A stretch of 64,000 nt of DNA from Acutalibacteraceae bacterium (GTDB taxonomy: Bacteria > Bacillota > Clostridia > Oscillospirales > Acutalibacteraceae), in NCBI GenBank assembly GCA_045628495.1, contig JAZQPL010000072.1:41118-105117 (forward strand). Reading direction: 5' to 3'. Shown here piece by piece: positions 16,510 through 35,584 of the stretch. A program made the translations under genes and the position numbers. The number at the start of each line of letters is the position of its first letter. Position 1 is the first letter of the stretch. Under the pieces are notes generated by a model that did not search any database, was not told the DNA's origin, and saw nothing but the letters and a program-made list of their open reading frames with translations.

Positions 16510-16609
16510 TTTAAGAACATATTAATAACTTAATAACGCATTTAATCTTTAATCATACTTAATTTCAATTCGGTAGTTGCTCTGCCGTATTGAGAACCTC
16601 GTCGCTTAT

Positions 16610-16638
16610 GAGGGCGGCGTAATCGGAACACCGCCCTC
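16610..16638 (+). terminator. GC-rich hairpin (attenuator/terminator or mRNA stabiliser) after subunit gene 1
   Basis: GAGGGCGG-13 nt-CCGCCCTC is a perfect 8-bp stem. There is only a weak T tract afterwards (TGCATTTCC), so termination is probably partial. Confidence 0.4.
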
Positions 16639-16664
16639 TGCATTTCCTCTCTCAGCTGTAAGGG

Positions 16665-16700
16665 TGATTTAAGAGTATATGCGATATACTTTTAATTGAC
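16665..16700 (+). promoter_or_regulatory. conserved AT-rich palindromic element, copy 1
   Basis: TGATTTAAGAGTATAT-gcga-TATACTTTTAATTGAC. It shares 16 + 11 + 4 identical positions with copy 2 at 17846-17882, and only the centre differs. Confidence 0.45.
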
Positions 16701-16832
16701 CTTTACAGTGAAAAAATAAGGTCAACCCAAAAAGAGAGCAGGTATTTTACAAAAGATACTTATTCCGGGTTACCGGCTAAGTATAAAGCGTTTTACGCAA
16801 ATCCGGCAAATTTTAGTAATGGAGATGAAGTC

Positions 16833-17774
16833 ATGAGAAGAAAAAGCAAAAAGCGTGCCTTTATAACCTCTATGGTTATGCTCCTCGTTTCTGCAATCGT
16901 TCTTACAAGTTCAACTTTTGCATGGTTCGTTATGGGCGATAAAGGCGTAATCGAAGAAATGGATGTTAAACTCTATGCTTCAGAAGGCTTCCAGATTTCT
17001 GCCAACGCTACTGACCCGAGCTGGAGACAGAACCTTACATTGGATAATCTTTTCAACACTGATGCTTCAACATCAGATGCTACTTATGATGCGTATGCAG
17101 GAAACAGAAATATGCTTCCCGAATATCTTATTCCCGCATCAAGCAGCTTTAATAACTTTGGTGATTACGGTTATCCTAATTTCTACTGTCTTAAAGTTGA
17201 TGCTGAAGGTGCAGTTGACGCAAGCAAAATCATAGAAGCATCAGGTAGTGCAGATGAAGCAGGAATCGTAGCATTCGATGTATTCTTCAAGTCCGGTGCG
17301 GCTCAGAAAATTGATTTCAGCAGCACAGAAGTTAAAGAAATCGGCGAAGAATCACAGAATGTACTTTCATGTATCAGATATGCATTTGTTCCTATGGGAA
17401 CAGTTGAAGAAGGTACAGAAGCAGCTACAATCCAGCAGCTCAGCAATGCAAGCGCTGCAAAGGTTGTAATTACAGAAGCTGATTCCAAGGGCCATTCTGT
17501 AGAAGGCGCAAAGAATCCTTCACAGGCTACAGTACCTGTTAACAGCACAGAAGTAGGCACTGCAGATACAGATATGTACATAGTTAAGAGCGGTACAGCA
17601 CTTCCCACCGGTACTGTTTACACAAGTGATGCAGCTAACAAGACATTTGAGCTTGGCGCAGGCATTACAAAGGTAAGAGTATATATTTGGGCAGAAGGTA
17701 ACGATGTTGACTGCCGTGACAGTATTTCAAGCTCTGAACTTTCAGTTGCTTTCAAATTCACAGTAGCTGACTAA
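16833..17774 (+). CDS. secreted protein with SipW-type signal peptide; putative TasA-superfamily major fibre subunit 2 (paralog of 15556-16509)
   Basis: N-terminus MRRKSKKRAFITSMVMLLVSAIVLTSSTFAWFVMGDK. Blocks shared with the paralog include GFQISANA, IVAFDVFFK, YAFVPMGT and KVRVYIWAEGNDVDC. Confidence 0.6.
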   Translation: MRRKSKKRAFITSMVMLLVSAIVLTSSTFAWFVMGDKGVIEEMDVKLYASEGFQISANATDPSWRQNLTLDNLFNTDASTSDATYDAYAGNRNMLPEYLIPASSSFNNFGDYGYPNFYCLKVDAEGAVDASKIIEASGSADEAGIVAFDVFFKSGAAQKIDFSSTEVKEIGEESQNVLSCIRYAFVPMGTVEEGTEAATIQQLSNASAAKVVITEADSKGHSVEGAKNPSQATVPVNSTEVGTADTDMYIVKSGTALPTGTVYTSDAANKTFELGAGITKVRVYIWAEGNDVDCRDSISSSELSVAFKFTVAD

Positions 17775-17882: not shown

Positions 17883-17923
17883 TTTTCGGTCAAAAGTTTT
17901 ACAAAATAAAGGTGGATACTATT

Positions 17924-18676
17924 ATGGAGAAAAAAGGCAAAAGCATACTCGGAGTTGTTTCGGATATTTTACTGATTATCATTTTAATTATTGCAATTAT
18001 GATAACGGTAATGACATTTACATCAAAAAACTCCGATACAGGATTGGGTAATTTGTTCGGATACATTCCGTTTTCTGTTCAGACTGATTCAATGAACCCC
18101 ACAATCAGAGAAGGCGATTTGATTATTTCAAAAGCTATAACCGTTGACGAAGCCCGTAACGGCGAAGTTCTCAAAGTCGGTGATGTAATTACTTATTCTG
18201 CAATTATTTCAAACGAAGACGGTACTGCACAGAGAGATTATAATACACATAGAATTGTAGATATCAAGCGTGGAAAAGACGGTAAGGTTGAATACTACTA
18301 CACAAAGGGTGACGGTGTAAGCACAGAAGATAGTTTCCCTATTGTACCTGACGAAGTTATTGCAAAGCAGGTTGGTGCTTCAGCCGATATAGGACCTGAT
18401 AAGAGTGCCGAAAACATTAAAAAAGGTTTCGGTATCAGCGGATTAGGTAAAGCTCTCGGTTTCCTTCAGACTCAGCTGGGATTTATGGTTTGCATAATTA
18501 TTCCTTTGGCCCTGTTCTTTATCTGGCAGGTATATAAACTTATTTCTATGTTTATGTCTGCTAAATCAGAGGATTCAACTGACGATATTAAGCGTAAGGC
18601 TATTGAAGAATATCTTGCTCAGCAGGAAGCAGAAAAGAAAAAAGCGGAAAATGATTCAAATTCCGATAAATCATAA
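17924..18676 (+). CDS. signal peptidase I, ER/archaeal (SipW) type, paralog 1, with C-terminal TM and charged tail
   Basis: N-terminal TM, then VQTDSMNPTIREGDLII (catalytic Ser), YNTHRIVDI (catalytic His of the Ser-His dyad) and TKGDG. AAAGGTGG lies 8 nt before ATG 17924. Confidence 0.75.
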   Translation: MEKKGKSILGVVSDILLIIILIIAIMITVMTFTSKNSDTGLGNLFGYIPFSVQTDSMNPTIREGDLIISKAITVDEARNGEVLKVGDVITYSAIISNEDGTAQRDYNTHRIVDIKRGKDGKVEYYYTKGDGVSTEDSFPIVPDEVIAKQVGASADIGPDKSAENIKKGFGISGLGKALGFLQTQLGFMVCIIIPLALFFIWQVYKLISMFMSAKSEDSTDDIKRKAIEEYLAQQEAEKKKAENDSNSDKS

Positions 18677-20269: not shown

Positions 20270-20311
20270 TTAGCTTTACTATCCCGATAAATCAATGCAA
20301 AGGGGCATAAG

Positions 20312-22510: not shown

Positions 22511-22539
22511 AGATTTGAACCGGCGTGGAGGTTATTAAG

Positions 22540-25500
22540 ATGAAGAAAAGATTTATTGAAAGGGTACTGGTATTGATGTTATCAATGGCAGTATTGTTAT
22601 CGTCAACAGGGGCATACTCTGCATTTGCAGTATCTAAAAACGGTTTTATGTCCTTTTCTGCAATTAAATCTTCATCATCTGCTGCAAAAAATGAGCAGGA
22701 GACCACGACTCCTGAGTCTGATTCTGTTGAACCTAATCTTGTAAGCGACGGCGGAACAGTTGAGGCTGTTAAGCTTAACGGAAAAGGTACTGCTGAAAAT
22801 CCTTATATTGTTTCAAATGCAGATGAATTATTTGCAATGCAGAGTGTTGCAAATGATTCAACCTCAGGCGATAAGTATTTTGTTCTTACTAAAGATATAG
22901 ATTTATCCGGTGTCAGCTATTCTGAAATGAATGACAATTCTGTTCTTCCGGGAACAATAGTTTCAGTTGATAAAGCAGTGTGCAATGCTGCTCCTGATGA
23001 AGCTAAATTTATACTTGAAGGCAACAATCATAAGATTTTCGGACTTAATATTACAAATAACGGTTCCTCGGCGGTGGGTATTTTCGGTTATATCAGCCCT
23101 AAATCAGTTATTAAAAATGTTGTATTCGAAGATATCAGTGTAAATGTTTCATACAGCGGTTCTGTTTCTTCATCAGTTATTGCCGTATGCAACAACGGTG
23201 AAATCAGCGGATGCACTGTTAAAAATGTTGCATTGAATATCAGCGCTTCAGCTAACGGCGGCGTTAGTTCCAAGACTGTAGGCAAGCTTAAAATTAAAAA
23301 TTCAACAGGACTTATCGGCAGAAATAACGGTAAAATCTGTGATATGGATATCAGCAAAGTAACTGTTGATATCAGTGCAGGCAAGGATACTATTGCTGTT
23401 GTTTCCGGTATGAATTCCGGTACAATATCAAATATTACAGTAAATAAATCATCTGTTAAGGCTGTTAAATCAGACAATATCGGCGGCGTTGCCGGTAAAA
23501 ACAGCGGTAAAATAGAGTCTGCAACAGTTAACGGAATAAAAATTAAGGTTGACAAAAAGGCAGTTTGCGGCGGTATTGTCGGTGAAAACTCGGGAATAAT
23601 TGATTCTTGTGTTGTTTCCGGCTCCGTTACCGGTTCATCATATTCAGGCGGAATAGCAGGTTATGCCGTTTCGGAAAGCAAGTCAACTGTAAAGAATTGC
23701 TATTCACTTGCAGGTGTTTCAGCTAATAATGAAACAGGTGCAGTTATAGCCGCAGGTAAATCAGTTACAAGCGGTAATGTCTGGTCATCGGATATCAGCG
23801 GTAGAATCATGGCTTATGAAAACGGTTCTGTTGACGGAAAGTTTAACCGTGAAAACAAGCTGATTGTTGTACGCAACGGCCAGAGTGAGATTTTAAGCAA
23901 AGCATCACTTTCAGGAAGCTTTGCAGGTTTAACATATTCTCTTGACACATCAAAGGATATAGCTTTTGACGGCGAAGGAATTACATTCAGTGAAGATGAA
24001 AACAGTATTGTGATTACCGCAGATTCCGCAGACAAAACCGGAAAAATAACATATACATCAAAAGTTTCAGTTCAGGCAGGATGTAACGGATTATCTGAAA
24101 TTGATGTTAAGTTTAATACAGTAGTGCTCACTGTTCCGGAAGGAACTGCAGGCGATGGACTTACAGAAGCATCAGCTCTTGAAATTAAAAACAGTGCAGA
24201 ACTTTCAATGATTAAGTCTGCTCCTTTTGCAAATTATATTCTTTCAAAAGATGTTACAATGTCTGAGTCCTGGGATTCCTCAATTTCATTTACAGGAACA
24301 TTGAACGGCAACGGTAACACAATCAAGGCAAGAAAAAATCTGTTTAAGTTTACTAACGGCAAAGTTTATAACCTTAATGTTGTTCTTTGCGCATCAATAA
24401 AAACTGCTGTGTTCGGCAATGCATATAATGCAAAGTTCTCAAAAGTAAAACTTTCTGCACAAAAGAGTGAAGATGGTTTTATCGGTCTTAAAACTGATAA
24501 GAGTAACACAGCAACATTTATAAATACTGCAAGAGGAAATATAACAATCAGCAACTGCTTTACAAGCGTGCCCGTAAATGTAAACGGCTCAGGACTTAAA
24601 AATATTGCAGGCTTTATTGCTGTGCTTGATACTGATAATGCAGTAATATCATCCAGCGGTTCTCTTACATCAATTACTGTTAAAGACGGTTGTAAGATTT
24701 CATCAAGTGCCGCATTTATCGCATCTGCCGACGGAAATAAGAATGGCAAAATCAATGATTGCTATGCAACACTCTATTCCGATGATGTTAAAAATATTCT
24801 TATTGCATCGGGAGACAGCAGTATTAAAATGACTGATTCAGTTTTCAGTTCATCATCATCAAAAGCTGTTGCCGCTCCGAAAAAATTTGTTAATATAGAA
24901 GGCAAAAAGTGGGCGTTTGAATCAGGCGAATTCGGCTTTGTTTCTGCAGAGGGAAGCGTTGTTTCAATAGCAATCCCCGTTAATGTAATAAAGGGCGCAA
25001 GTGCGGATGATTTCAAAGTAATGTTTGATTCGGAAGTGCTTAAGGTGAATTCCGAAAAGCTGACAGTTAAAGACAATGTTCTTAATATTCCCGTTGAGGC
25101 GGCAAAGCCCGGAGTTACAATTAAGAACAGTGCACTTGTTGTTACACATAAGGGAACGGGTCTCAGAGCAGAAATAAGTCTTTCAAACGGACTTGAAAAA
25201 GATAAAGACGGTAACTATATAATTAACTGCGGAGCAGATTTCCTGTTTATTAACAATGACTTTGACAATTTCTGTGATAAAAGCTTTATCCTTTCCGGAA
25301 ATATTGATATGTCAGGCATTGATTTTTCAACAATCGGCGGCGCTTCCGGTAAATTTACCGGAAAGCTGGACGGTAACGGATATACCGTTAAAGGTCTTAA
25401 AATCAACGGAACTGCTAAAGCAGGATTATTCGGAACTGTTGACGGTGCAAAAATAGTTAATATTTACTTTGAAGATGCGGTTGTTAATGCATCAAATGAT

Positions 25501-28500
25501 TACGCAGGTGTGCTTGCCGCTCAGATTACGGGAAATACAACAATTAAAGCGGTAAACTTCAAAAACTGCAGTGTAATCAGCACCGGTAATTATGCAGGTA
25601 TTGCAGCCGGCGAAACAGACGGCATAAAACTTTACGGAATTTCAGTGGAAAATTCATCTGTTAAGGCTCTTAATTATGCCGGATTTGTTGTAGGAAAAGC
25701 TGAAAATTCAGAAATTAAAAACATAAGTGCCAAAAATGTTAAAGCATCCGGCGAAAACAATATCGGACTTTTCGGCTGCACGGAAAATTCAAAGCTTGAA
25801 AAAATAGCTGTTAACAACGGCATTGTATCAGGCGGTAAATTTGTCGGAGGAATTTCAGGCTCGGCAGAAGAATCAGAAATATCAAATGTTAAAGTAAACG
25901 GTACAACGGTCAGCGCGGCTGCGGATGTTATGGCTTCTGCTCCTGTTGCAGGCGGTGTATGCGGTTTCTTAAGCGGAAAGCTCAACGGAGCAGTTGTTAA
26001 GTCACTTGAAGTGAAATCATCCGGCAGTTCTGCTGTTGCCGGCGGTGTTGCAGGTATAACAGAAAATGCCGAAATCAGCAACGCTGAGGTATATGGTGAT
26101 GTTAAAGTTTCAGCTTATGTTGTCGGCGGTATAATCGGCGAAGCTGAAAATAATACATCAGTTTATAATTCAAAATCACTTGCAGCTGTTTGTGGAAGCG
26201 ATACACAGTTAAGAGTTGTAACAGGCGCAGGCGGAGTTATCGGCCGTGTAAAGGCAGACGATTTTGCAACAGTTAAAATCAGCAAGGTTAATGTTTCTGG
26301 TAAAATTACCGCTGTTGATTCTGTGGGCGGAATTATCGGTTCGGTTATTTCCGAAAAAGCAGACGGTGTAAGCGTTAAAGATTGTGTATGTGCCGCAGAG
26401 ATAGTTGTTACATCAGATAACGGAATGAAAATATCCGGCTGCATAATAGGCAATGTAACAGAGCTTAAATCAGATGCTCTGGAAAAATCAGTTGAAGGTA
26501 TCGTATATTCTTCATACGGTTCAGGCCTTAATGCAATCGGCACAGCAGATGTTAAATCAGGATATTACGATGCTGATAAAGCTGTTAAAGCTGTGGTACC
26601 TGATTTAATTAAAACAAGAGCGGAAAATAAAATATCTGTTTCAACAGGAGATATTAAAAAATACGGTTTTGTATTTGACAGTGATAAAGGTTGGCAGTCT
26701 GAATCGGCAAAGAGAATCGTTGTTGTTGATTCTTCAGAGAATCAGGTTAAAATCAAGGCAGTAAGATCAGGCAATGTCGGAATAGCTGCGGAGTACAAAC
26801 TTTCTGCCGATAAAGATATAGTAATTAAGGTTCACTTTAATGTTAAATCTGAAATAGCAACAACTCTCAAAGGCGAAGGAACAAAATCAAATCCTTATGT
26901 AATCAATAATGCTTTTGATTTGGAAAATGTATCATATTATTCAGGCGAGAACAGTTGCTTTGTTTTGAATAACGATATTAAGTTCAGCGCAGATGCCTTT
27001 AAGTTCAGCGGAGATTTTTATAACGAAGGATGCGGATTTACTCCCATTGGTTCGAAAGAAAATCCGTTTAACGGAAAGTTTGACGGTAACGGTCATAAAA
27101 TAAGCGGACTGTGTGTTAACAGTGAAGACGGTGCGCTTTTCGGATATGCTTCGGATGCTGAAATTAAAAATGTTACTGTTGAAAAAGCAACAATAACAGG
27201 AAACAATTCTGCGGCGGCAGTAGTTGCCCGTCTTGTGGATTCTGAAATCACCAATGTATTTGTTACAGGATGCAATGTTGTTGCAACTGATGTTGAAGGA
27301 AGTGCTTCTGCGGTTGTTGCTTATGCAAAAAACAGTAAAATTGAAAATGTTAATGTAGAATCTGCAGAAATTACAGCTTGTCCTGCTGAATTTAAGGAAA
27401 AAAATGCAAGCGCAGGTGCAGTTTGTGCAAGAGTAACTGATGTTACTGTAAATAAAGTTACAGTTAACGGCGCAGATGTTGTTTCGAACGGTTTTGCAGG
27501 CGGATTTATAGGATATTGCGATAATGCGATTATCAGCAATTCAAAAACAGTTGCTGAAATCAAGGGCAATATTGCAGGCGCAGTTTCAGCGGATACTGCA
27601 GGAAAGCTTACAGCAGAAAATATTGTTGCAGGCGGAACGGTTTACGGTCATGAACTTGCGGCAGGTCTTTCAGCAAAATCTGATGCTCCTGTTGTATGTA
27701 AAAATGTAATTATCTCCGCTAAAGTAAAAGGTGAAGGCGTTTCCGCTGTTGTTACGGCGAAGGCAGATGAATCAATATTTACTGATTCTGCCGATAGTGA
27801 AGTTGTTCTTGAAAACATTGTTTATTCAAGTTATCAGAATAACCTCAAACCTTTCGGAGATAAAAAAATAAATATGTTCCAGAGCGCTGATTATGTCGGA
27901 AATGTTTACGATGCGAATGTTGCAGAAGTAAAAGAGGGCAATAGCCTTGTAATCGGAAAAGACAAGACAGATGTTTTCGGTTCAATTAAATCCGAATTCG
28001 ATTTCAGCAAGTTTGTTTGTGAAAATATTTACAGTGTTCCCGAAGGACTTGTGAAATATAATAAAGCAGATAATACGGTTACTGCAGCGGGCACAAATGT
28101 TGACGGCGCTCAGCTTGTTATCAGATTTGATAACGGCATTGAAATAGCAGTACCTATGGTAAGCGTTGTCGGACTTACAGGCAACGGTTCTGATGTTTCC
28201 CCGTTTGTTGTTAATTCTGAAGACACACTTAAACTTCTCAAGGTATATCCTGAATCAAACTTTAAGATGTCAGGTGATGTTGAACTTAAAAATGTCTGGA
28301 CTCCGGTTGAAAACTTCAGCGGAAAATTTGACGGAAACGGATACACAATATCAGGCCTTAATATTAAAGCGGACAATGCAGGTTTATTTAATACTGTTTC
28401 AGGAAAAGCGGTTATTAAGAATATATCCTTTACAGACGCAGTTATTGAAGGTAAAGCTTCAGCAGGTGTTCTTGCGGCAAATGTTTCGGAAGATGCGCAG

Positions 28501-30564
28501 ATAAGCGGCGTAAGTATAGGAGCATCAAGTGTTAAAGCAGATGAATATGCCGGTGCGGTTGCCGGAAATATTCAGTCAACAAATTCTGCAATCACATTAT
28601 GTTCGGTAACCAGCTGTGAAATTTCAGCAGATTATGCGGCAGGAATTGTCGGAATGGTTTCGGGCAAAGCGAGTGTAATAAGCTGTGAAGTAGAATCTTC
28701 TGAAATAAAAGGTGCTTTTGCGGCAGGTGCTGTTGCAGGATTGGCAAGTGCAGAGAAGTTTGAAGTTTTATCATGCAGCACTTCGGCTGATGTAACCGCT
28801 GAAAATGCAGGTGCTCTGATAGGCATAGAAGAAAAGAATGCCGTTATTGACAAATGCGCAACAAACGGTTTGGTTGCAGGTAAATATTCAGAGGGCGGCG
28901 TAATTGGTATTTCTGATGATACAGTAAGTATTAAAAATACAAAATCCTTTGCTTCTCTTTCAGGCAAAGCAAAACACAGCGCTGCATTGATTGGTATTTT
29001 TGCAGTTAAGCCTGAAGATAACGAAGCTTTCTCGGATTCATTCAGCTCAAATACTGTTTCTGGAGAGTTTGACGAGTTTGAACCGTCGGTTATGAAATAT
29101 CAGAATTTCGTTCCTGCAAACCGGGAAGAAATAAAGCCGCAGCTTAACGGTGAAGGCACAAAGGATAATCCGTACATTATTTCCTCAGCAAAGGATTTTG
29201 CTGAAATTCCGGATTCTTCAACAGCTTATTTCGAATTGGCTGATGATATTAAACTTTCAGCAAGCGATTACGGCGTTTCATACGATAAGAGCGGTAAAGC
29301 AGTTTACGGGGTTTTCAACAACGGATATAAACCGATTAAGAATTTTGCAGGTGTATTTGACGGAAAGGGTCATGTAATCAGCGGATTGTATATTGATTCA
29401 GAGTCTGATTATGTAGGTTTATTTGCAAATATCACTGCATCAGGTGTTGTTAAAAACCTTCATGTAGAAATTCTTGATAAGAGCGAAGGGCTCGGCTTTG
29501 ATTCCGTAACAGGCAGAAATTATGTTGGCGGTATTGCAGGTTACTGTGATTCGGTTAACGGTATTGAAAACTGCTCGGTTGTCGGCGGAAGCATAAACGG
29601 CAACAATACAGTCGGCGGAATAGCAGGCGGAATAGCAGGTTCCGAAATAATAAATTCAGTTGCGATTACTGAAATCAACGGCCAGAATAAATCAGGCGGT
29701 ATTGCAGGTACAACCACAGGAGAGTGTATTATTAAGAATTGCGCAGTATTGTGTGATGTTAATGCCGCAGGCGGAACTCTGGTTGGTGTTAATACAGGAA
29801 CGCTTTCCCTTACAGATGTATTTGCAAACGGTTGTTCATACGGTTTGGGAGCAGTTGCAGTAGAAACAAATAACGGAACAATAAATGCTCAGAATGTTCT
29901 TGTTTCAGGTGAGAACGATGCAGATAAATCATCTGTTCTTAAAGCTCAGAAAGCAGAGAATGTTTATTGCGACAGAACCTTGCTCAGAGCTTACGATGAT
30001 AATATCAAGCCTATGACAACAGAGACTCTTACTTCGTCAAAGCCTGACGGACTTGAAAGTTGGACTCAGGTTAAAGGAAGATATCCTGTTCCGGTTATGG
30101 CAGACAGTTATGCTAACGAAAAAGCAGCCCTTGCCGCTGTTCCCGGTGAAGCTAAACCTGTTGAAAAGGCAACCGGTAATGTTTCAGTAAGCTATAAGCT
30201 TTCCAACAAATCAGACGATGCAACATTGAATAATCAGGTTATCGGAATTCTTATGAAATCTGTTAACGGCAAGAAAATTGTAACTGAAGATTTCTTTACA
30301 AATTGCAGTTCTGATGAAGTTAAGTTAAATAAACTTCTTGTTACAACAGGAGGATTCTATATAGATTCTTCCTTGCCCCAGGGATTTAAAATTCAGGTTT
30401 CTGCAAAGGATTCTTACGGCAACAAGCTTGCAGTTAAAGATGCAGGAAGCGAAGGGCTTTATGTTGAATCAGGAAGAGCAGATAATGTAACTCTTTCAAT
30501 CGAAATTGTTAATACAGACATTCCATGGGGAGCTTACTCCCTGTGGGAGAGTCTTGCAAGATAA
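22540..30564 (+). CDS. giant (2674 aa) secreted GLUG-motif / beta-helix repeat protein, putative adhesin or fibre-associated protein
   Basis: GGAGG lies 8 nt before ATG 22540. Signal peptide is MKKRFIERVLVLMLSMAVLLSSTGAYSAFAVS. Six modules open with G.G(T/S)..(N/S)P(Y/F).(I/V)....(E/D/T/F)L, at about nt 22774, 24137, 25201, 26866, 28174 and 29143. Each continues with F(S/T/N/A)G.(F/L)DGNG(Y/H/N).I.GL and ..GLFG. Long runs of GG(I/V)(A/I/V)G units follow, as in IgA1-protease-type GLUG regions. No LPxTG, SLH, dockerin or C-terminal TM is present. Confidence 0.8.
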   Translation: MKKRFIERVLVLMLSMAVLLSSTGAYSAFAVSKNGFMSFSAIKSSSSAAKNEQETTTPESDSVEPNLVSDGGTVEAVKLNGKGTAENPYIVSNADELFAMQSVANDSTSGDKYFVLTKDIDLSGVSYSEMNDNSVLPGTIVSVDKAVCNAAPDEAKFILEGNNHKIFGLNITNNGSSAVGIFGYISPKSVIKNVVFEDISVNVSYSGSVSSSVIAVCNNGEISGCTVKNVALNISASANGGVSSKTVGKLKIKNSTGLIGRNNGKICDMDISKVTVDISAGKDTIAVVSGMNSGTISNITVNKSSVKAVKSDNIGGVAGKNSGKIESATVNGIKIKVDKKAVCGGIVGENSGIIDSCVVSGSVTGSSYSGGIAGYAVSESKSTVKNCYSLAGVSANNETGAVIAAGKSVTSGNVWSSDISGRIMAYENGSVDGKFNRENKLIVVRNGQSEILSKASLSGSFAGLTYSLDTSKDIAFDGEGITFSEDENSIVITADSADKTGKITYTSKVSVQAGCNGLSEIDVKFNTVVLTVPEGTAGDGLTEASALEIKNSAELSMIKSAPFANYILSKDVTMSESWDSSISFTGTLNGNGNTIKARKNLFKFTNGKVYNLNVVLCASIKTAVFGNAYNAKFSKVKLSAQKSEDGFIGLKTDKSNTATFINTARGNITISNCFTSVPVNVNGSGLKNIAGFIAVLDTDNAVISSSGSLTSITVKDGCKISSSAAFIASADGNKNGKINDCYATLYSDDVKNILIASGDSSIKMTDSVFSSSSSKAVAAPKKFVNIEGKKWAFESGEFGFVSAEGSVVSIAIPVNVIKGASADDFKVMFDSEVLKVNSEKLTVKDNVLNIPVEAAKPGVTIKNSALVVTHKGTGLRAEISLSNGLEKDKDGNYIINCGADFLFINNDFDNFCDKSFILSGNIDMSGIDFSTIGGASGKFTGKLDGNGYTVKGLKINGTAKAGLFGTVDGAKIVNIYFEDAVVNASNDYAGVLAAQITGNTTIKAVNFKNCSVISTGNYAGIAAGETDGIKLYGISVENSSVKALNYAGFVVGKAENSEIKNISAKNVKASGENNIGLFGCTENSKLEKIAVNNGIVSGGKFVGGISGSAEESEISNVKVNGTTVSAAADVMASAPVAGGVCGFLSGKLNGAVVKSLEVKSSGSSAVAGGVAGITENAEISNAEVYGDVKVSAYVVGGIIGEAENNTSVYNSKSLAAVCGSDTQLRVVTGAGGVIGRVKADDFATVKISKVNVSGKITAVDSVGGIIGSVISEKADGVSVKDCVCAAEIVVTSDNGMKISGCIIGNVTELKSDALEKSVEGIVYSSYGSGLNAIGTADVKSGYYDADKAVKAVVPDLIKTRAENKISVSTGDIKKYGFVFDSDKGWQSESAKRIVVVDSSENQVKIKAVRSGNVGIAAEYKLSADKDIVIKVHFNVKSEIATTLKGEGTKSNPYVINNAFDLENVSYYSGENSCFVLNNDIKFSADAFKFSGDFYNEGCGFTPIGSKENPFNGKFDGNGHKISGLCVNSEDGALFGYASDAEIKNVTVEKATITGNNSAAAVVARLVDSEITNVFVTGCNVVATDVEGSASAVVAYAKNSKIENVNVESAEITACPAEFKEKNASAGAVCARVTDVTVNKVTVNGADVVSNGFAGGFIGYCDNAIISNSKTVAEIKGNIAGAVSADTAGKLTAENIVAGGTVYGHELAAGLSAKSDAPVVCKNVIISAKVKGEGVSAVVTAKADESIFTDSADSEVVLENIVYSSYQNNLKPFGDKKINMFQSADYVGNVYDANVAEVKEGNSLVIGKDKTDVFGSIKSEFDFSKFVCENIYSVPEGLVKYNKADNTVTAAGTNVDGAQLVIRFDNGIEIAVPMVSVVGLTGNGSDVSPFVVNSEDTLKLLKVYPESNFKMSGDVELKNVWTPVENFSGKFDGNGYTISGLNIKADNAGLFNTVSGKAVIKNISFTDAVIEGKASAGVLAANVSEDAQISGVSIGASSVKADEYAGAVAGNIQSTNSAITLCSVTSCEISADYAAGIVGMVSGKASVISCEVESSEIKGAFAAGAVAGLASAEKFEVLSCSTSADVTAENAGALIGIEEKNAVIDKCATNGLVAGKYSEGGVIGISDDTVSIKNTKSFASLSGKAKHSAALIGIFAVKPEDNEAFSDSFSSNTVSGEFDEFEPSVMKYQNFVPANREEIKPQLNGEGTKDNPYIISSAKDFAEIPDSSTAYFELADDIKLSASDYGVSYDKSGKAVYGVFNNGYKPIKNFAGVFDGKGHVISGLYIDSESDYVGLFANITASGVVKNLHVEILDKSEGLGFDSVTGRNYVGGIAGYCDSVNGIENCSVVGGSINGNNTVGGIAGGIAGSEIINSVAITEINGQNKSGGIAGTTTGECIIKNCAVLCDVNAAGGTLVGVNTGTLSLTDVFANGCSYGLGAVAVETNNGTINAQNVLVSGENDADKSSVLKAQKAENVYCDRTLLRAYDDNIKPMTTETLTSSKPDGLESWTQVKGRYPVPVMADSYANEKAALAAVPGEAKPVEKATGNVSVSYKLSNKSDDATLNNQVIGILMKSVNGKKIVTEDFFTNCSSDEVKLNKLLVTTGGFYIDSSLPQGFKIQVSAKDSYGNKLAVKDAGSEGLYVESGRADNVTLSIEIVNTDIPWGAYSLWESLAR

Positions 30565-30594: not shown

Positions 30595-31170
30595 ATGAAA
30601 ATCAATTTTAAACCGGTTAAAAATATAATATTGCTCATAGCTTCGGCCCTCACTTTGGTGGCTGTCACTTTTGCGTGGTATTCATTAAGTAAAAATGTCG
30701 GTAATTTTCAGCTTGATTCTGATGTTTCAGGTTCAACACTTTCTGTTAATTACTTTGTTTCTTCTGACGGCGGCAAAAATTATTCAAAGCTTATCGGCGA
30801 TATTTCAATGAATAATGTTGCCGAAGGTCAGGTTGAGTATTACAGAATGGATGTAAAAACATTCAAAGATAAACCGGTGAAGCTTATCATGAGCTTTGAA
30901 GGACTGACTTCGAACAACATCAGTTCTCATGTATATTTTGATTATACTCTCAAGCGTAAGGACACGGGCGTAGTGCTCAGCGAAGCTCAAAAGCTTAAAA
31001 TGTCTGATTATGTTTCAAATAATGTTTTTGCATTTGATGTTTCTTCGTTTCAGAGTTCCGGCGTTAATGAATATGTAATTGATTATAATGTATATGTTGT
31101 TTCAGACGGAGAAAGTATATCCGGTTCATCTTCTTTGGGAGAAGTTAAAATTACCGGTCAGCAGGTATAA
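30595..31170 (+). CDS. small secreted protein with SipW-type signal peptide (putative minor fibre subunit 1)
   Basis: N-terminus MKINFKPVKNIILLIASALTLVAVTFAWYSLSKN. The ~160-aa mature part looks beta-rich (VEYYRMDVKTFKDKPVKLIMSFEG). Confidence 0.55.
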   Translation: MKINFKPVKNIILLIASALTLVAVTFAWYSLSKNVGNFQLDSDVSGSTLSVNYFVSSDGGKNYSKLIGDISMNNVAEGQVEYYRMDVKTFKDKPVKLIMSFEGLTSNNISSHVYFDYTLKRKDTGVVLSEAQKLKMSDYVSNNVFAFDVSSFQSSGVNEYVIDYNVYVVSDGESISGSSSLGEVKITGQQV

Positions 31171-31175
31171 CTGAT

Positions 31176-31823
31176 ATGAAAAAAAAGCCTGAAAAAGAAG
31201 TAAATCCAAAGGTTGAAAAAATCAAGAATATAATTAAAAGAATTTTGTCTGTTATTGCAGCTGTTTCTTTCGTTTTGGGACTTGTAATTTTTATTTCGGT
31301 TTTAAGAGCTAATAACGGTGAAGTGCCGAATATATTCGGTTTCAGTGTTATGAGAGTACAGACAGGAAGTATGGAACCGGAGCTGAGAGTCGGAAGCATT
31401 GTAATAACAAGGCATGTTCCTCAGGAAGAAATTTCCGTAGGAGACATTATAAGCTTTTACTCTATTGATCCGGGATTGAATAATCAGGTGGAAACTCACA
31501 GAATTGTGGAAGAGCATTATGTCGGTAAGGAAAGAGAGTACATTACAAAAGGTGATGCAAACCAGGCGGATGACAGTTATCCTGTTATTTACAGAAATGT
31601 AATAGGTAAGGTTATCGGGAATTTGGGAGTTGCATCCGGCTCAGTAATAGGTATTCTTCAGAACAAGAATGTTATTTTATTTTTAATTATTATACCGCTG
31701 GTATTTATTACTTTTTCTGAAGCGGTAAATCTTGTAAATCTGGTTATAGAAAGCAGAAAAACAGCGAAGGAAGAAAATTCAGATGAATCCGAAAATGAAA
31801 AGAAAAACAAAAGTTCTGATTAG
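31176..31823 (+). CDS. signal peptidase I, SipW type, paralog 2
   Basis: VQTGSMEPELRVGSIVI, VETHRIVEE and TKGDANQADD, with N- and C-terminal TMs and an acidic tail. Confidence 0.75.
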   Translation: MKKKPEKEVNPKVEKIKNIIKRILSVIAAVSFVLGLVIFISVLRANNGEVPNIFGFSVMRVQTGSMEPELRVGSIVITRHVPQEEISVGDIISFYSIDPGLNNQVETHRIVEEHYVGKEREYITKGDANQADDSYPVIYRNVIGKVIGNLGVASGSVIGILQNKNVILFLIIIPLVFITFSEAVNLVNLVIESRKTAKEENSDESENEKKNKSSD

Positions 31824-32292
31824 TTCAGTTTTAATCTGTATTCTTTCTTTTTTGCTGATGATAATATATATACCTAAAATTATGGGTTATCAATCGTTTT
31901 ATATTCAGTCAGGCAGTATGTCACCGTCTATTCCCAAGGGAAGCTATGTTTTTGTAAAAAGAGCAGAGTTTGAAAAAATAAGTGTCGGTGATGTGGTTAC
32001 TTTCAGGAACAACGAAGAAACAGAATTTTTCACTCATCGGGTAGTTGATATTGATGCTACCAACAAAATGTTTACAACTAAAGGCGATGCGAATAAAGAA
32101 AACGACCCTTCGGAAACGAGCTACTATTTTGCAGTAGGAAGGGTGGATTTTTCTATACCGGTTGTAGGCTATATTGCCGAGTTTTTTAATAAAACAGTAG
32201 GTAAGGTTGTTTTAGCAAGTGTATATATCGCATGGATTGCGATTGAGATAGAATTTATCGTTATGAAGCGAAAAGCTCCTCAGGAGGATTAG
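31783..32292 (+). CDS. signal peptidase I, SipW type, paralog 3
   Basis: IQSGSMSPSIPKGSYVFV, FFTHRVVDI and TKGDANKEND. It overlaps the previous gene by 41 nt (alternative ATG at 31795). Confidence 0.75.
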   Translation: MNPKMKRKTKVLISSVLICILSFLLMIIYIPKIMGYQSFYIQSGSMSPSIPKGSYVFVKRAEFEKISVGDVVTFRNNEETEFFTHRVVDIDATNKMFTTKGDANKENDPSETSYYFAVGRVDFSIPVVGYIAEFFNKTVGKVVLASVYIAWIAIEIEFIVMKRKAPQED

Positions 32293-32293
32293 T

Positions 32294-32959
32294 ATGAAGA
32301 AAAGGATTATTGCCGTTATAGCATCTCTTGCAGTGGTTATCGGACTTATGTCAAGCCAAAGCTCATATGCGTGGTTTGTAACATCAGTTAAGAGAGCGCA
32401 AAATATAAATATTGCCGTTGTTAATTACGATAGCGAAACTGAACTGCTCGGCACGGATGAGGCAGATTTTTACGGCAGAGCGTGTATTCTTCCGGGGCAG
32501 AATCTTGTTCTGGTTAATGATAAAGACGCAAAGCTGACAATGAACAATAATTCTTCTATTGATACTCAGATAAGAGTAAAAATTGAATATACAAGTTATT
32601 CCTCAGGTTCTGCAAAAACGGTTACATATTCAGGCAGCGGGGAAGATGACCTTGTTGTTGAGTTCGTAAATCCGTCACAGTGGCTTCCTTATGATAACGG
32701 AATGGACGGAACATATTTCTATTATGTCGGACCGGATAATAAATCCGCAAAGTTAACTGATATTGATAATGTGTATTCAATAACACCCTCAGTTCCAAGT
32801 GTTGATATTGTAAAATCCGTTTCGTACAGAGAAAATATTGATACCTCACTTTACACGGGCAACGAAGTAACTGTTAATATTATTTTTGAAGCAAAACAGG
32901 CAGATTATGTAGGCTGGAGCGCATTAGGTCAGTATCAGGTTAATTCGGGTATCAACTAA
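32294..32959 (+). CDS. small secreted protein with SipW-type signal peptide (putative minor fibre subunit 2)
   Basis: GGAGG RBS. N-terminus is MKKRIIAVIASLAVVIGLMSSQSSYAWFVTSVK. It starts 1 nt after the stop of paralog-3 peptidase. Confidence 0.55.
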   Translation: MKKRIIAVIASLAVVIGLMSSQSSYAWFVTSVKRAQNINIAVVNYDSETELLGTDEADFYGRACILPGQNLVLVNDKDAKLTMNNNSSIDTQIRVKIEYTSYSSGSAKTVTYSGSGEDDLVVEFVNPSQWLPYDNGMDGTYFYYVGPDNKSAKLTDIDNVYSITPSVPSVDIVKSVSYRENIDTSLYTGNEVTVNIIFEAKQADYVGWSALGQYQVNSGIN

Positions 32960-32962
32960 GTT

Positions 32963-33484
32963 ATGAAGATTAAACCGTTAAATGTTTTATTTAATATTTT
33001 AGCAATAGTAACTGTTATTTCAGTTTGCTTTGTGGGATTCAATGTGATAAACAAAGCAAAAGGTTATTCTGTTGTTACAGACAGTATGACTCCGGTTTAT
33101 AACAGAGGAGATGTTGTTTTTGTTAAGAAAACGGATTTTAATTCTCTTAAAGCAGGGGATATTGTCACGGTAAGATTTTATGACGAAAGCGGGTATTTTA
33201 CTCACAGAATAACAGAAATTGATTACAACGCGGGAATGTTCAGAACAAAAGGCGATGCAAACGAAAACGAAGACCCGCAGCCTTCCGAAAAAGAGCAGAT
33301 TGTCGGCAAGGTGTGGTACAGTGTTCCGCTTTTGGGATATATTTCAATATTCATTTCATCAATGAATTTAATAAAAATCAGTGTGATATTGGCAATAGTT
33401 GTAATCATACTTGTTACGGCAACAACTATTATTTCAAAATCTAAAAAATCTAAAACGAGAGGTGACAGCAATGAACAGTGTTAA
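32963..33484 (+). CDS. signal peptidase I, SipW type, paralog 4
   Basis: VVTDSMTPVYNRGDVVFV, YFTHRITEI and TKGDANENED, with N- and C-terminal TMs. Confidence 0.75.
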   Translation: MKIKPLNVLFNILAIVTVISVCFVGFNVINKAKGYSVVTDSMTPVYNRGDVVFVKKTDFNSLKAGDIVTVRFYDESGYFTHRITEIDYNAGMFRTKGDANENEDPQPSEKEQIVGKVWYSVPLLGYISIFISSMNLIKISVILAIVVIILVTATTIISKSKKSKTRGDSNEQC

Positions 33485-34118
33485 AAAAATATCTGCAATA
33501 GTTATGTCTTTGGTTCTCATCATGTGTGCGGGATATTTTTCAGTGATGTCACCGACTACGGCATGGTTCTATCAGTCACAGTCGGTCAGCGGAGCAAACA
33601 ATAAGTTCGTATTTGCTGATTTTGATATTGACGGGGAGTATTCGTTTGAAAAGCTTCTTACTTTTGACGGCGCCACGGCTTATGCAGACGAAACTGAAAC
33701 AATGTTTGATTCAGTTGTTAAAGTTATGGATGTTGAAGTTAAAAACGAAGGCGGACTTCCTGCAAGAGTTTATTCAACAGTTGAAAACAAAACAGAGTCA
33801 AAAGGGTTAAGATATTTTTGTTATACCGATGATATGATCGTAAACGGAAGTGTCAAAGAAACAATCAGAAAGGCTCTGAACAATAATCTTAACGACAGAC
33901 AGCTTGATGTTTACAACATAGGCGAAGACGGAAACGGCGGGTTTTATGTAAATTTGAATCCCGGTGAAACAAAAAAGGTTAAGGTTGCACTTTGGCTTGA
34001 ATATGACGAATGCAGTGCAGAACTTGCATTTGCCGAGTCAGCGTGGGAAACAGTTGATTATCAGATTGAAATTACTATGACAGCAACCGAAGATTTTGAC
34101 GGTGCTATGGAAAGATAA
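33471..34118 (+). CDS. small secreted protein with SipW-type signal peptide (putative minor fibre subunit 3)
   Basis: GAGAGGTG lies before ATG 33471; the track start at 33411 sits inside the peptidase gene. N-terminus is MNSVKKISAIVMSLVLIMCAGYFSVMSPTTAWFYQSQS. It carries VEVKNEGGLPARVY and KVKVALWLEYDEC motifs like the larger subunits. Confidence 0.55.
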   Translation: MNSVKKISAIVMSLVLIMCAGYFSVMSPTTAWFYQSQSVSGANNKFVFADFDIDGEYSFEKLLTFDGATAYADETETMFDSVVKVMDVEVKNEGGLPARVYSTVENKTESKGLRYFCYTDDMIVNGSVKETIRKALNNNLNDRQLDVYNIGEDGNGGFYVNLNPGETKKVKVALWLEYDECSAELAFAESAWETVDYQIEITMTATEDFDGAMER

Positions 34119-34141
34119 GTTTAAGGGCAGGGTTGATTGAT

Positions 34142-34744
34142 ATGGAAAAAAGCAGAAAAAAAATTGCTGTAATCATAGTCAGCATTGTTGCGATAATTGC
34201 TGTTGTGTCAGGTACACTTGCTATGTTTACAAGCAAAAGTTCTCTGGTTCAAAACGGCAAACTTTTCGGATTCAGCAGCAATGCCCGTGTTTATTTTGAA
34301 ACAGAAGACGGAAAAACAATGAATGCTTCTGCCGATAAAGACGGATTGTACAAACTCAGTCTTGACTCGAATGCAAAAAATTACATAGGAAATTTCAGAG
34401 TAAATGTGGTTAAAAAAGGTCGTTCAAAATGTTATGTCAGAGTAAAGCTTAATGTTGAGTGGACTTTACCTGACGGCACAGTGACTGAGAATATAATGCT
34501 CCCGTACAATTTTGCAGAAAAATGGTATGATAACCGCAGCAAGGATTATTGCGTTTATTATACTGAAAACAGCGGACTTGAAGAAGATTACGATAAATCT
34601 ATAATAACAGGGTTTGATGAACAGAAATTCCTTGAAGAAGGTCTTACAGAAACAGCTGTTCCCAGAGTTTCTGTTTCGGTTGAAGCTGTTCAGATTAACC
34701 GTTATCAACAGATTTGGGGCATTGAAAAGCTCCCGTGGGAATAA
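34142..34744 (+). CDS. small secreted protein with SipW-type signal peptide (putative minor fibre subunit 4)
   Basis: N-terminus MEKSRKKIAVIIVSIVAIIAVVSGTLAMFTSKSS, then FRVNVVKKGRSKCYVRVKLNVEW. Confidence 0.5.
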   Translation: MEKSRKKIAVIIVSIVAIIAVVSGTLAMFTSKSSLVQNGKLFGFSSNARVYFETEDGKTMNASADKDGLYKLSLDSNAKNYIGNFRVNVVKKGRSKCYVRVKLNVEWTLPDGTVTENIMLPYNFAEKWYDNRSKDYCVYYTENSGLEEDYDKSIITGFDEQKFLEEGLTETAVPRVSVSVEAVQINRYQQIWGIEKLPWE

Positions 34745-34765
34745 ATTTCAAAGGGATGACTTGTT

Positions 34766-35584
34766 ATGTCAGCAGAAAAGAATAAAAAACACAGAAAGCC
34801 TGCGGTGGGGAAGCCTGCCGCAGGCAGTAATAATAAAAGAGAGAAAACGGATTCACATAAAAAATCAGTTAAACAGACAAATGTAAAAAACAATAATAAA
34901 AGTGCCGCTAAAAACAAGAATATTAAAAATAAAAACGATAAGCCAAAACCTGTTTCAAAAAGCAGGAAAGAGAAGCTGAAAAAAACTGATTTTGCTCAGA
35001 AAAAATTATCCGTTAAAGAAAAATTTGAAAAATTCAGAAAAGATTATGATATCGGAAGAATTGCGCTGGCGATTGCTGTTGTAATAATTTTTATCGCAGG
35101 GATTATTATTCTGATTGTATCGTTGACAGGCAGGAATTATTCTGTTCCGGATTATGTGAAAGATGCGGGATATAAAGGCAGAACGGAGCCGGATTCTGTT
35201 GCCTTTGATATGGATATTTCTCTTAATCAGCAAAAATCACTTGTAAAGGCAACTAAAAGAAAAGGCGAAAAAAGGAAATTCGGATTTTTTATTAACGACG
35301 AGATTAAATTGGCGGAAAGTGATGAACCTGCTCTTTTGGAATTCGGCAATGTGGAATCAAATGACTGCGTTCTGGTGTTTTTCCTGTTTGACGAAAAAGG
35401 AAACGAAATTTACCGCTCATTAGGTGTTGCCCCTGGTAAGGAAGTCCGCTCTGCAAGTTTCTTTGATGAAATTTCATACGGGACTCATGATATTACAGTT
35501 GCGGTTATAGGATACGACCCGCAAACATTTGAAAAAACAGGAATGCAGACTTCTAAACTCAAACTGAAAATCGGTGTGGATTAA
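34766..35584 (+). CDS. type-II membrane protein: ~100-aa lysine-rich cytoplasmic tail, one TM, small ectodomain
   Basis: The N-terminal ~100 aa are K/N/S-rich and basic. TM helix is IALAIAVVIIFIAGIIILIVSL. The ectodomain (FGNVESNDCVLVFFLFDEKGNEIYRSLGVAPGKE) is paralogous to that of the next gene. Confidence 0.5.
   Translation: MSAEKNKKHRKPAVGKPAAGSNNKREKTDSHKKSVKQTNVKNNNKSAAKNKNIKNKNDKPKPVSKSRKEKLKKTDFAQKKLSVKEKFEKFRKDYDIGRIALAIAVVIIFIAGIIILIVSLTGRNYSVPDYVKDAGYKGRTEPDSVAFDMDISLNQQKSLVKATKRKGEKRKFGFFINDEIKLAESDEPALLEFGNVESNDCVLVFFLFDEKGNEIYRSLGVAPGKEVRSASFFDEISYGTHDITVAVIGYDPQTFEKTGMQTSKLKLKIGVD

Follow-up and report, generated by a model that had tools for sequence, protein, structure and literature searches.

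SipW systems are known with a single signal peptidase, which is the norm in the literature, as the first-pass annotation had remarked, and which we also found in 4/4 sampled outgroup loci, where one SipW serves 3-6 small proteins. The DNA analyzed here (the window, a 64-kb stretch from an uncultured, Acutalibacteraceae-like gut Clostridia bacterium) raises the question of why three peptidases of this type should be interleaved with four small secreted proteins, and whether each of them has its own substrate. The genes considered are listed below; arrows mark predicted cleavage sites.

15556..17774, + strand: two paralogous putative major subunits, 317 aa (15556-16509) and 313 aa (16833-17774)
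17912..18676, + strand: SipW1, long-type signal peptidase I adjoining the major subunit genes (TIGR02228, 60.8 bits)
22525..30564, + strand: giant secreted repeat protein, 2679 aa, candidate tip adhesin (from repeats and position)
30595..31170, + strand: s191, small secreted subunit, 'a-type' module member (ORF; signal peptide ends VTFA↓WY)
31176..31823, + strand: SipW2, long-type ER/archaeal-type signal peptidase I (TIGR02228, 89.3 bits)
31783..32292, + strand: SipW3, short-type signal peptidase I (TIGR02228, 94.5 bits)
32294..32959, + strand: s221, small secreted subunit, 'b-type', SSYA↓WF (hhalign, AF2 model)
32963..33484, + strand: SipW4, short-type signal peptidase I (TIGR02228, 88.5 bits)
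33471..34118, + strand: s216, small secreted subunit, PTTA↓WF (ORF)
34133..34744, + strand: s203, small secreted subunit, 'd-type', GTLA↓MF (hhalign)
34766..35584, + strand: p272, single-pass membrane protein (synteny, hydropathy, hhalign)
35574..36092, + strand: p172, single-pass membrane protein, paralogue of the p272 external domain (synteny, hhalign, hydropathy)

A check against the ORF list recovered all seven genes of the block at 30595-34744 on the + strand, in the order s191, SipW2, SipW3, s221, SipW4, s216 and s203 originally annotated. The computed junctions ranged from -41 to +14 nt (s191/SipW2 +5, SipW2/SipW3 -41, SipW3/s221 +1, s221/SipW4 +3, SipW4/s216 -14 and s216/s203 +14). The sizes first given for s191 and s221 were retained, whereas s216 has 215 aa from the ATG at 33471 rather than 216; s203 has 203 aa if read from the TTG at 34133, but an alternative ATG at 34142 (200 aa) may be its real start. 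In the whole window, the SipW HMM matched exactly four ORFs, and a pattern of a hydrophobic segment followed by x-x-A-[W/M]-[F/Y] matched exactly six. Because 10/10 of these ORFs lie inside one locus, and because about 30 independent contigs show the same arrangement (Clostridia/Acutalibacteraceae loci with a syntenic block, in which s221 identity falls to 25-36%), the layout is not due to chance. The block runs on into the two membrane-protein genes (34766-36092), which are conserved to an equal degree. The region 30595-36092 probably supplies the minor subunits or the tip within a ~22-kb locus (14.6-36.1 kb).

All four peptidases scored above the curated cut-off (51.85 bits) of TIGR02228, the model for ER/archaeal-type signal peptidase I (SipW/Sec11 type, S26B). 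With the Bacillus SipW equivalog NF046067, they reached 67.5-89.9 bits, below its cut-off of 190. On the basis of these family models, they are enzymes of the SipW type but not strict SipW orthologues. The motifs GSM or DSM (Ser), THR (His) and TKGDAN...D were present in SipW2, SipW3 and SipW4, and Ser, His and TKGD with the downstream Asp were invariant across SipW1-SipW4, in contrast with the Ser/Lys dyad of bacterial LepB. They aligned to SGSM, VHRV and TKGDNN..DD of human SEC11A, which confirmed the earlier claim that the three block peptidases keep the Ser, the His and the KGDAN block. The catalytic Ser, His and Asp were kept in all paralog groups and in 73 of 75 distinct orthologues; within the SipW4 group, one orthologue alone departed at the catalytic columns. 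The view that there is no dead paralog among them was thus borne out, and the three are predicted to be active signal peptidases. Each paralog contains one N-terminal and one C-terminal hydrophobic segment in a Kyte-Doolittle scan, which is a simple hydropathy measure and not a topology predictor. SipW1 and SipW2 carry a long charged C-terminal tail, whereas SipW3 and SipW4 (37% identical to each other) have 169-173 aa and no extra domain.

The long charged tails of SipW1 and SipW2 could favor a different idea, namely that the peptidase-like proteins serve as chaperones, provide a platform or, as had also been suggested at first, work as sortase-like polymerases, beyond or instead of removing signal peptides. 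B. subtilis SipW reportedly has a second, peptidase-independent role that depends on its C-terminus, and the coupling of cleavage to assembly proposed in C. perfringens would likewise imply a scaffold-like enzyme. However, Ser, His and Asp are strictly conserved in every group, which points to catalysis, and no extra domain is present in the short-type enzymes. Sortase-style covalent polymerization also appears chemically implausible, as serine-protease chemistry would leave the signal peptide on the catalytic Ser in the acyl-enzyme and make the mature subunit the leaving group, so that transpeptidation could not join subunits. Moreover, an [LIV]P.[TSA]G motif, searched anywhere in the sequence, was found in 0/16 locus proteins, and Pfam scans of the locus proteins gave no match to sortase. 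Without a Cys transpeptidase or an LPXTG motif, a sortase-like polymerase is disfavored, and we consider a non-canonical role as a whole very improbable.

The first-pass annotation had further proposed a dedicated enzyme for each minor subunit, and had described the cleavage regions of the four small proteins (TFAWY, SYAWF, TTAWF and TLAMF) as mutually different. These motifs were read correctly, and the small proteins do appear to be SipW-type substrates, but the motifs proved to be variants of one cleavage consensus common to all six subunits, [S/T]-x-A↓W-[F/Y], with an occasional L at the last position. The s203 orthologues vary among SLAWF, SLAWY, TFAWL, TLAMF and TFAWY, and the spread among orthologues of one protein was as large as that among the four proteins. 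The predicted mature N-terminus is W-F or W-Y in the six subunits, except that the s203 copy of the window reads A↓MF, in contrast with A↓W-F/Y in its orthologues. Position -2 showed a mild preference by group: F/Y in the major subunits and s191, Y/N/G in s221, T/S in s216 and L/F in s203. This preference would suit peptidases that each recognize a distinct motif, and so would the tightly interleaved and overlapping genes and the ancient divergence of paralogs that are all catalytically intact. However, position -2 is normally not a determinant for signal peptidases, which follow a general -3/-1 rule. The numbers do not match either: the ratio of peptidases to small proteins was 3:4 in the window, 2:4 in L003/L033/L034, L038 and L039, and 1:4 in L037. 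Outgroup loci have one SipW for 3-6 small proteins. Thus, a strict one-to-one assignment appears improbable. The W-F dipeptide more likely marks an aromatic donor-strand start than a specificity code. On inspection, the cleavage motif of the subunits resembles T-x-A-x-F.

A different kind of linkage between peptidases and subunits emerged from the duplication history. Identity was 55-60% within the peptidase orthogroups and 23-30% between them, and the tree separated an ancient long clade, in which SipW1 is sister to SipW2, from a short clade containing SipW3 and SipW4. The phylogeny that the first-pass annotation had called for gives an old long/short split, and SipW3 and SipW4, judged from this tree, are the product of a later one. 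SipW3 is the 'extra' copy, being absent from L003/L033/L034 and L037-39. The most divergent loci were informative: L038 and L039 have the gene order long SipW-a-b-short SipW-c-d, and in L037-39 a is related to c (hhalign 97.1% over 176 columns) and b to d (95.8% over 169 columns). Because of this [long SipW-a-b][short SipW-c-d] arrangement, the block probably arose when a module of three genes, one peptidase and two subunits, was duplicated. What survives of the proposed linkage is hence this co-duplication, and not one enzyme per subunit.

It should be considered whether the paralogs are simply interchangeable and were kept for sufficient or translationally coupled activity in a highly expressed operon. 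All substrates have one cleavage consensus, and only four alignment columns were conserved inside each paralog group yet differed between groups, so that no clear specificity-determining signature could be recognized in the peptidase alignment. Some redundancy does exist, since the L003 lineage lacks SipW3 and the L037 block has a single peptidase. On the other hand, interchangeable copies would be unlikely to stay discrete orthogroups in all sampled lineages, the loci covering the whole block keep the long/short pair with a single exception, the long-type enzymes have their distinct charged tail, and in outgroup loci one SipW suffices for as many substrates or more. Pure redundancy or dosage is accordingly a possible but rather unlikely explanation. 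That separate orthogroups with intact catalytic residues have been kept side by side for so long would instead suggest that substrates or timing are partly partitioned (subfunctionalization).

Existing family models gave little information on the substrates. No Pfam or NCBIfam threshold was reached by any small protein or major subunit, s191 having no match in either collection. PF12389 (Peptidase_M73) matched neither the small proteins nor the major subunits, and none of 15 members of the s203 family even at E <= 1; TIGR04088 (the SipW-cognate signal peptide class) and TIGR04090 (BsaA) gave no match to the window proteins at E <= 0.1, and 2/15 s203-family members matched TIGR04090 below threshold (best E-value 0.0019). 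We then used hhalign with a profile built from the small proteins of loci that have one SipW, PF12389-positive members included. This classical SipW-cognate profile aligned with s221 (96.5%, 169 columns) and s203 (97.4%, 157 columns), which are also homologous to each other (92.9%), and partially with s216 (77.9% over 90 columns), whereas s191 (5.6%) and the major subunit (6.9%) showed no tie to it. By profile comparison, s221 and s203 belong to the TasA/camelysin type as divergent members, and s191 and the major subunits are a family without an existing model. By hhalign, s191 matched the major subunits in its N-terminal ~70 aa only (92.5%) and protein a of L037-39 over its full length (94.9%). 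The most divergent of the four small proteins, s216, is conserved in every class A and class B locus.

The two major subunits are 39% identical to each other and have signal peptides that both end SSTFA↓WF; their homologues fell into 428 clusters, all unnamed and none with a Pfam domain. In AF2 monomer models, a disordered N-terminal stretch precedes a beta-sandwich core both in s221 (pLDDT 72.8 overall, about 88 in the core) and in the major subunit (pLDDT 83.9, with 50 disordered residues before a jelly-roll-like core above 90). Foldseek comparison with the PDB returned nothing at E <= 1e-3 for either model. Its insignificant matches included Csu, Caf1, the 0406 thread, AbpA and CanA but not TasA, and PDB sequences searched with profiles gave no match. 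The 2679-aa giant protein, a candidate tip adhesin, has an ordinary Sec-type signal peptide, Peptidase_M26_N-like repeats (its orthologues show faint Glug or M26_N matches) and a conserved PWG..S.W motif at its extreme C-terminus. Its gene adjoins the minor-subunit block in every case, lying downstream of it in L037 and L038. The p272 gene is syntenic in nearly all loci, and its product, a candidate accessory or anchor protein, has a Lys-rich cytoplasmic N-terminus, one hydrophobic segment (residues 93-127) and an external domain related to p172 (hhalign 97%).

Taken together, a sortase-independent, SipW-processed surface fiber of the TasA-superfamily type is the most likely product of the locus in this gut Clostridia bacterium. 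The four small proteins would be exported as signal-anchored precursors, and the peptidases would cut after the Ala of the consensus. Cleavage would expose the aromatic W-F N-terminus as the start of the donor strand, and would therefore both free the subunit from the membrane and license it for incorporation. The duplicated module probably comprised a peptidase, an s191-type subunit and a TasA/camelysin-type subunit; its duplication generated the long-type and short-type peptidases, separate ever since, and the short type duplicated later into SipW3 and SipW4. We favor this picture of a SipW-processed fiber with module-duplicated and partly partitioned peptidases, with moderate confidence. 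In a stronger version, which we consider unlikely, the peptidase of each module would release only its own subunit pair, and W-F exposure would dictate the sequence of joining for giant adhesin, adaptor subunits and shaft. If true, such gatekeeping would do without sortase what pilin-specific sortases do, and Gram-positive bacteria would have a new means of programming the composition of heteropolymeric fibers. Operons of these class C sortases follow a similar genetic logic, with several paralogous enzymes for processing placed among the genes for major and minor subunits; however, class C sortases are Cys transpeptidases that act at a C-terminal LPXTG and polymerize subunits covalently, whereas the locus encodes Ser/His peptidases predicted to act at the N-terminal signal peptide.

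No description of a multi-SipW operon was found in the literature, and the conserved layout of three peptidases interleaved with four subunit genes appears to be undescribed. The available part of a study of TasA-superfamily loci (10.64898/2026.01.04.697558) likewise does not describe several signal peptidases per locus. According to this study, such loci carry signal peptidase, accessory, tip and minor components, and position 1 of the donor strand in these filaments is occupied by an aromatic residue, as predicted for the subunits here, which forms a conserved clamp. The archaeal and bacterial AbpA, AbpX, Tafi, thread and cannulae loci, as presented there, resemble the present locus in having major, minor and tip proteins, a dedicated TIGR02228 peptidase and membrane accessory proteins, although the AbpX-associated peptidase has ten TM helices, in contrast with the two hydrophobic segments found here; likeness in fold to AbpA, the 0406 thread and CanA is limited to the insignificant Foldseek matches.

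Among clostridial systems, C. perfringens sipW-bsaA-bsaB-bsaC and the similar L041, L044, L045 and L046 also place a SipW gene beside several small TasA-like proteins, to which s221 and s203 are homologous, and a large adhesin. SipW cleavage has been proposed to be coupled to donor-strand assembly in the bsa system (10.1101/2024.11.04.621531). These loci differ in having a single SipW for all their substrates, in containing sortase and Cna_B/SpaA/VWA proteins, and in their classical N-terminal motif G-T-L-A-Y-F-T-D versus A-W-F. The B. subtilis tapA-sipW-tasA and B. cereus sipW-tasA-calY operons also have a dedicated ER/archaeal-type signal peptidase beside its substrates, a T-x-A↓(aromatic)-F type cleavage region, and major and minor or accessory subunits, and their TasA-type fibers assemble independently of sortase through an N-terminal donor strand (PMC9674648, PMC10151520). 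In contrast with the one peptidase of these operons, the locus encodes four, of which three lie among the minor-subunit genes and all score below the SipW equivalog cut-off; it has no TapA homologue, no TasA homology is detectable in its major subunits or s191, and it adds the giant adhesin and a membrane McrB-like ATPase, which also belongs to the locus.

The interleaved arrangement of four small secreted subunits (s191, s221, s216 and s203, named by their length in amino acids) with three signal peptidase paralogs (SipW2-SipW4), which the first-pass annotation had described at 30595-34744 of the window, proved to be real: the block consists of seven ORFs on the + strand with tight junctions (+5, -41, +1, +3, -14 and +14 nt, in order from s191 to s203). 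A small correction is that s216 has 215 aa when counted from its ATG. The block forms the distal portion of a cluster of about 22 kb on the + strand.

Genes of the cluster and its upstream neighbor (↓, predicted cleavage site)
13847-14596, +, stand-alone EAL-domain gene (Pfam E = 1.8e-46), cyclic-di-GMP phosphodiesterase type
14615-15388, +, p257, membrane protein with an uncleaved-looking hydrophobic segment (36-70)
Starting at 15556 and 16833, +, two paralogous putative major subunits (39% identical; SSTFA↓WF)
17912-18676, +, SipW1, fourth peptidase paralog, after the major subunits (TIGR02228)
Starting at 18722, +, McrB/AAA_5-like protein (weak similarity), 515 aa, membrane-anchored, N-terminal hydrophobic segment
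Starting at 20312, +, Lys/Glu-rich repeat protein, 719 aa, C-terminal half a long Lys/Glu/Ala-rich repeat (AKEKA...)
22525-30564, +, giant secreted repeat protein, 2679 aa
30595-31170, +, s191
31176-31823, +, SipW2 (TIGR02228)
31783-32292, +, SipW3 (TIGR02228)
32294-32959, +, s221
32963-33484, +, SipW4 (TIGR02228)
33471-34118, +, s216
34133-34744, +, s203 (ATG at 34142 a possible alternative start)
34766-36092, +, p272 and p172, single-pass membrane proteins, 3' of the block

A search of the whole window with the SipW HMM identified exactly four genes (SipW1-SipW4), and a hydrophobic stretch followed by x-x-A-[W/M]-[F/Y] was found in exactly six ORFs, namely the four small proteins and the 313-317-aa proteins at 15556 and 16833. 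The co-occurrence of both gene types in one locus cannot be due to chance. Between 17.5 and 37.4 kb, a single terminator-like site was found on the + strand, inside the giant gene; the promoter/terminator scan was uninformative, its counts being close to the shuffled expectation.

SipW2, SipW3 and SipW4 scored 88.5-94.5 bits, and SipW1 60.8 bits, on TIGR02228 (ER/archaeal-type signal peptidase I; curated cut-off 51.85 bits), and none of the four reached the Bacillus SipW equivalog cut-off. By every feature examined, they belong to the ER/archaeal-type signal peptidase I family; they are not strict orthologs of Bacillus SipW. Each protein contains two hydrophobic segments, one N-terminal and one C-terminal, and the C-terminal tails of SipW1 and SipW2 are charged. 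Invariant across the four paralogs were Ser (GSM or DSM), His (THR), TKGD and an Asp further downstream, which aligned with SGSM, VHRV and TKGDNN..DD of human SEC11A (PDB 7P2P), in agreement with the catalytic Ser, His and KGDAN block assigned previously to SipW2-SipW4. The view that no paralog is dead was also borne out, as the Ser, His and Asp columns were intact in 73 of the 75 distinct peptidase sequences from the compared loci. One exception, SipW3 of L018, showed an apparent truncation (probable frameshift) and was treated not as a pseudogene but as a probable assembly error, because the contig has a coverage of about 2x. The other, SipW4 of L006 (10672-11184), retains Ser and His, with the TKGD Asp changed to Ile, and is the only candidate inactivating change in the set. 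A non-proteolytic or polymerase role, as in the earlier proposal that these proteins might have acquired a polymerase or chaperone function analogous to pilin-specific sortases, appears highly improbable given the conserved catalytic residues and the absence of LPXTG and sortase; moreover, the acyl-enzyme of a signal peptidase carries the signal peptide and not the mature subunit.

The cleavage-region motifs reported for the small proteins (TFAWY, SYAWF, TTAWF and TLAMF) are correct; their use as distinguishing codes did not hold up. A single consensus, [S/T]-x-A-W-[F/Y/L], fitted every subunit class across orthologs, with at most a mild preference at position -2. Motifs among orthologs of s203 (SLAWF, SLAWY, TFAWL, TLAMF and TFAWY), s191 (SFAWF, TFAWY and SFAWL) and s221 (SYAWF, SNAWF, SGAWF and SFAWF) differed as much within one protein as among the four, and thus they are not stable protein-specific codes. 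Since the predicted cut after Ala would leave W-F as the mature N-terminus, A↓W-F may be read mainly as a cleavage site and donor-strand start. The window s203 has Met (TLA↓MF) where each close ortholog has Trp, and is the sole one of the six window subunits without W at the predicted mature N-terminus.

Related loci were taken from GTDB genomes (the Acutalibacteraceae MAG L001 and the Clostridia MAG L002, the latter from horse faeces), metagenomes (L007-L040) and exact-protein look-ups (L003-L006 and L041-L046). A genome-contig scan with SipW3 protein alone gave only two loci; far more were obtained by scanning metagenomes with the s221 alignment. About 30 contigs, with protein identities of 40-80%, retain the order s191-SipW2-SipW3-s221-SipW4-s216-s203-p272-p172, and the locus is present in the human gut. 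Variants were found as well: the block of L003, L033 and L034 consists of s191, a long SipW, s221, SipW4, s216 and s203, a ratio of two peptidases to four small proteins, whereas the order is long SipW-a-b-short SipW-c-d in L038 and L039 and a-b-short SipW-c-d in L037, whose long copy is not in the block (a-d, small proteins in gene order; long and short, the two peptidase clades). The four nearest outgroup loci sampled have exactly one SipW each for three to six small proteins. Peptidase and small-protein numbers do not match (3:4, 2:4 and 1:4), and these ratios, together with the common cleavage consensus, contradict the previous suggestion of a dedicated enzyme for each minor subunit; strict one-to-one pairing is quite unlikely.

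With regard to the age of the paralogs, identity was 55-60% inside an orthogroup and 23-30% between orthogroups. It follows from these discrete orthogroups and their intact catalytic columns that the copies are old and all under selection for catalytic competence. In a peptidase tree (neighbor-joining only), SipW1 and SipW2 grouped with the first peptidase of L003, L038 and L039 in the long clade. SipW3 and SipW4 grouped in the short clade, where the one short peptidase that L037-L039 each have branched outside the two. Among the small proteins of L037-L039, hhalign paired a with c (97.1%, 176 columns) and b with d (95.8%, 169 columns); a is the counterpart of s191 (94.9%, full length), b of s221 (99.4%) and d of s203 (98.9%), and c resembles s191, not s216. 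The simplest history suggested by these comparisons would be tandem duplication of a module of one peptidase, one s191-type and one TasA-type subunit, after which the short peptidase was duplicated once more and some rearrangement led to the window layout. Plain redundancy or dosage, which would agree with the shared consensus and with the loss of SipW3 in one lineage, is somewhat unlikely, as it poorly fits long-lived, discrete orthogroups. A division in which long peptidases serve major and s191-type subunits and short ones TasA-type subunits was rejected, because the peptidases of L038 and L039 each precede one of each type. Only four columns were fixed within and different between paralog groups, too few to argue from about specificity-determining residues.

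In each small protein, the cleavage-region motif comes directly after the only hydrophobic segment, which is N-terminal. Neither the small proteins, the major subunits nor 15 s203-family members had a match above threshold in Pfam and NCBIfam; two of the 15 showed a sub-threshold match to the BsaA model TIGR04090. Against a profile of small proteins from the four single-SipW outgroup loci, which includes PF12389 (Peptidase_M73, TasA/camelysin) members with the classical G-T-L-A-Y-F-T-D N-terminus, s221 (96.5%, 169 columns) and s203 (97.4%, 157 columns) matched, s216 matched partially (77.9%, 90 columns), and s191 and the major subunits did not match. AlphaFold2 predicted s221 to fold as a beta-sandwich (overall pLDDT 72.8, rising to about 88 in the core) and the major subunit to have a jelly-roll-like core, modelled with confidence (83.9 overall, core above 90), with a disordered stretch after the cleavage site in both. 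Foldseek comparison of the two models with PDB gave no significant match (TasA was absent), and thus fold-level TasA-family membership is unproven; weak, non-significant matches included the donor-strand subunits Csu, Caf1, Saci_0406 thread, AbpA and CanA. When profiles of the s221, major-subunit and s203 families were searched against PDB sequences, nothing but noise was obtained. Homologous clusters, all unnamed, numbered 68 for s221 (Clostridia MAGs and gut metagenomes) and 428 for the major subunit (without Pfam domains). The locus thereby flags a putative major-subunit family of >400 clusters in uncultured gut Clostridia that lacks a Pfam or NCBIfam model, as does the giant adhesin found there.

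Taken together, the explanation that we favor with moderate confidence takes the four small proteins of the block to be minor or adaptor subunits of a fiber that is processed by SipW and independent of sortase, and whose tip would probably be the adjacent giant protein. The three active peptidases would release signal-anchored precursors, creating the W-F donor-strand end and thereby licensing incorporation into the fiber, as has been proposed for cleavage of Clostridium perfringens BsaA (10.1101/2024.11.04.621531). Their multiplicity would have arisen from module duplication and been kept by partial partitioning of substrates or timing. The remaining probability lies with explanations outside those considered here.

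The working logic would be the same as in tapA-sipW-tasA, sipW-tasA-calY, sipW-bsaABC and the TasA-superfamily loci of archaea and bacteria, which combine signal peptidase, accessory, minor and tip genes. Unlike the window locus, these systems have been described as having a single peptidase, for the TasA-superfamily loci at least in part of the published account. Sortase is encoded in the four outgroup loci, along with Cna_B, SpaA or VWA adhesins; the window locus lacks all of these. The statement that known SipW systems have a single peptidase therefore holds for described systems and these outgroups. A literature search found no account of multi-SipW operons, which is not proof of absence; the conserved arrangement is apparently undescribed. 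A peptidase that was seemingly duplicated together with subunit pairs and then kept as separate active lineages in a conserved gut locus bears on the ordered incorporation of minor and tip subunits into TasA-like fibers, and the locus lends itself to asking, naturally and directly, if cleavage of the signal peptide conveys specificity or timing in fiber assembly. Should the paralogs prove interchangeable, which would be the mundane outcome, the finding would shrink to a gene-family expansion of modest interest.

Orthologs of the giant protein occur across L001-L043 and range from 713 aa (L006) to >5100 aa (L003 and L042). They have no LPXTG motif and always end in PWG(L/V)xS(L/V/I)W(E/S)..(R/K), or in W-G-L-(Y/F)-D in L037 and L038 (summary form in divergent loci, W-G..(S/D)..W), which might dock the giant protein to the minor subunits. 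The giant gene is 5' of the block in the window and 3' of it in L037 and L038; since it adjoins the block in either position, adhesin and minor block travel together.

The McrB-like and 719-aa genes (18722-22471), whose position between SipW1 and the giant gene is kept in L006 and L038, would not be expected beside genes for an extracellular fiber and might have an energising or anchoring function. p272 and p172 are paralogs that consistently follow the block; their external domains are mutually homologous (hhalign 97%), and the two may be counterparts of the 'SPI-accessory proteins' of AbpX-type loci. Both are missing in L006 and just one is present in L042; p272 is enlarged to 653-674 aa in L003 and L034. 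p257 lacks the A-W-F site, and its last ~35 residues share a C-terminal motif with the major subunits (VVVWFEGEDPEC versus VYIWVEGNDIDC; hhalign 75%). It is kept at the head of the L038 locus and could be what anchors the fiber in the membrane or forms its base. The EAL gene, directly upstream of the fiber locus on the same strand, hints at c-di-GMP-linked regulation, and the 5'-truncated ORF that precedes the locus in L038 may correspond to this gene.
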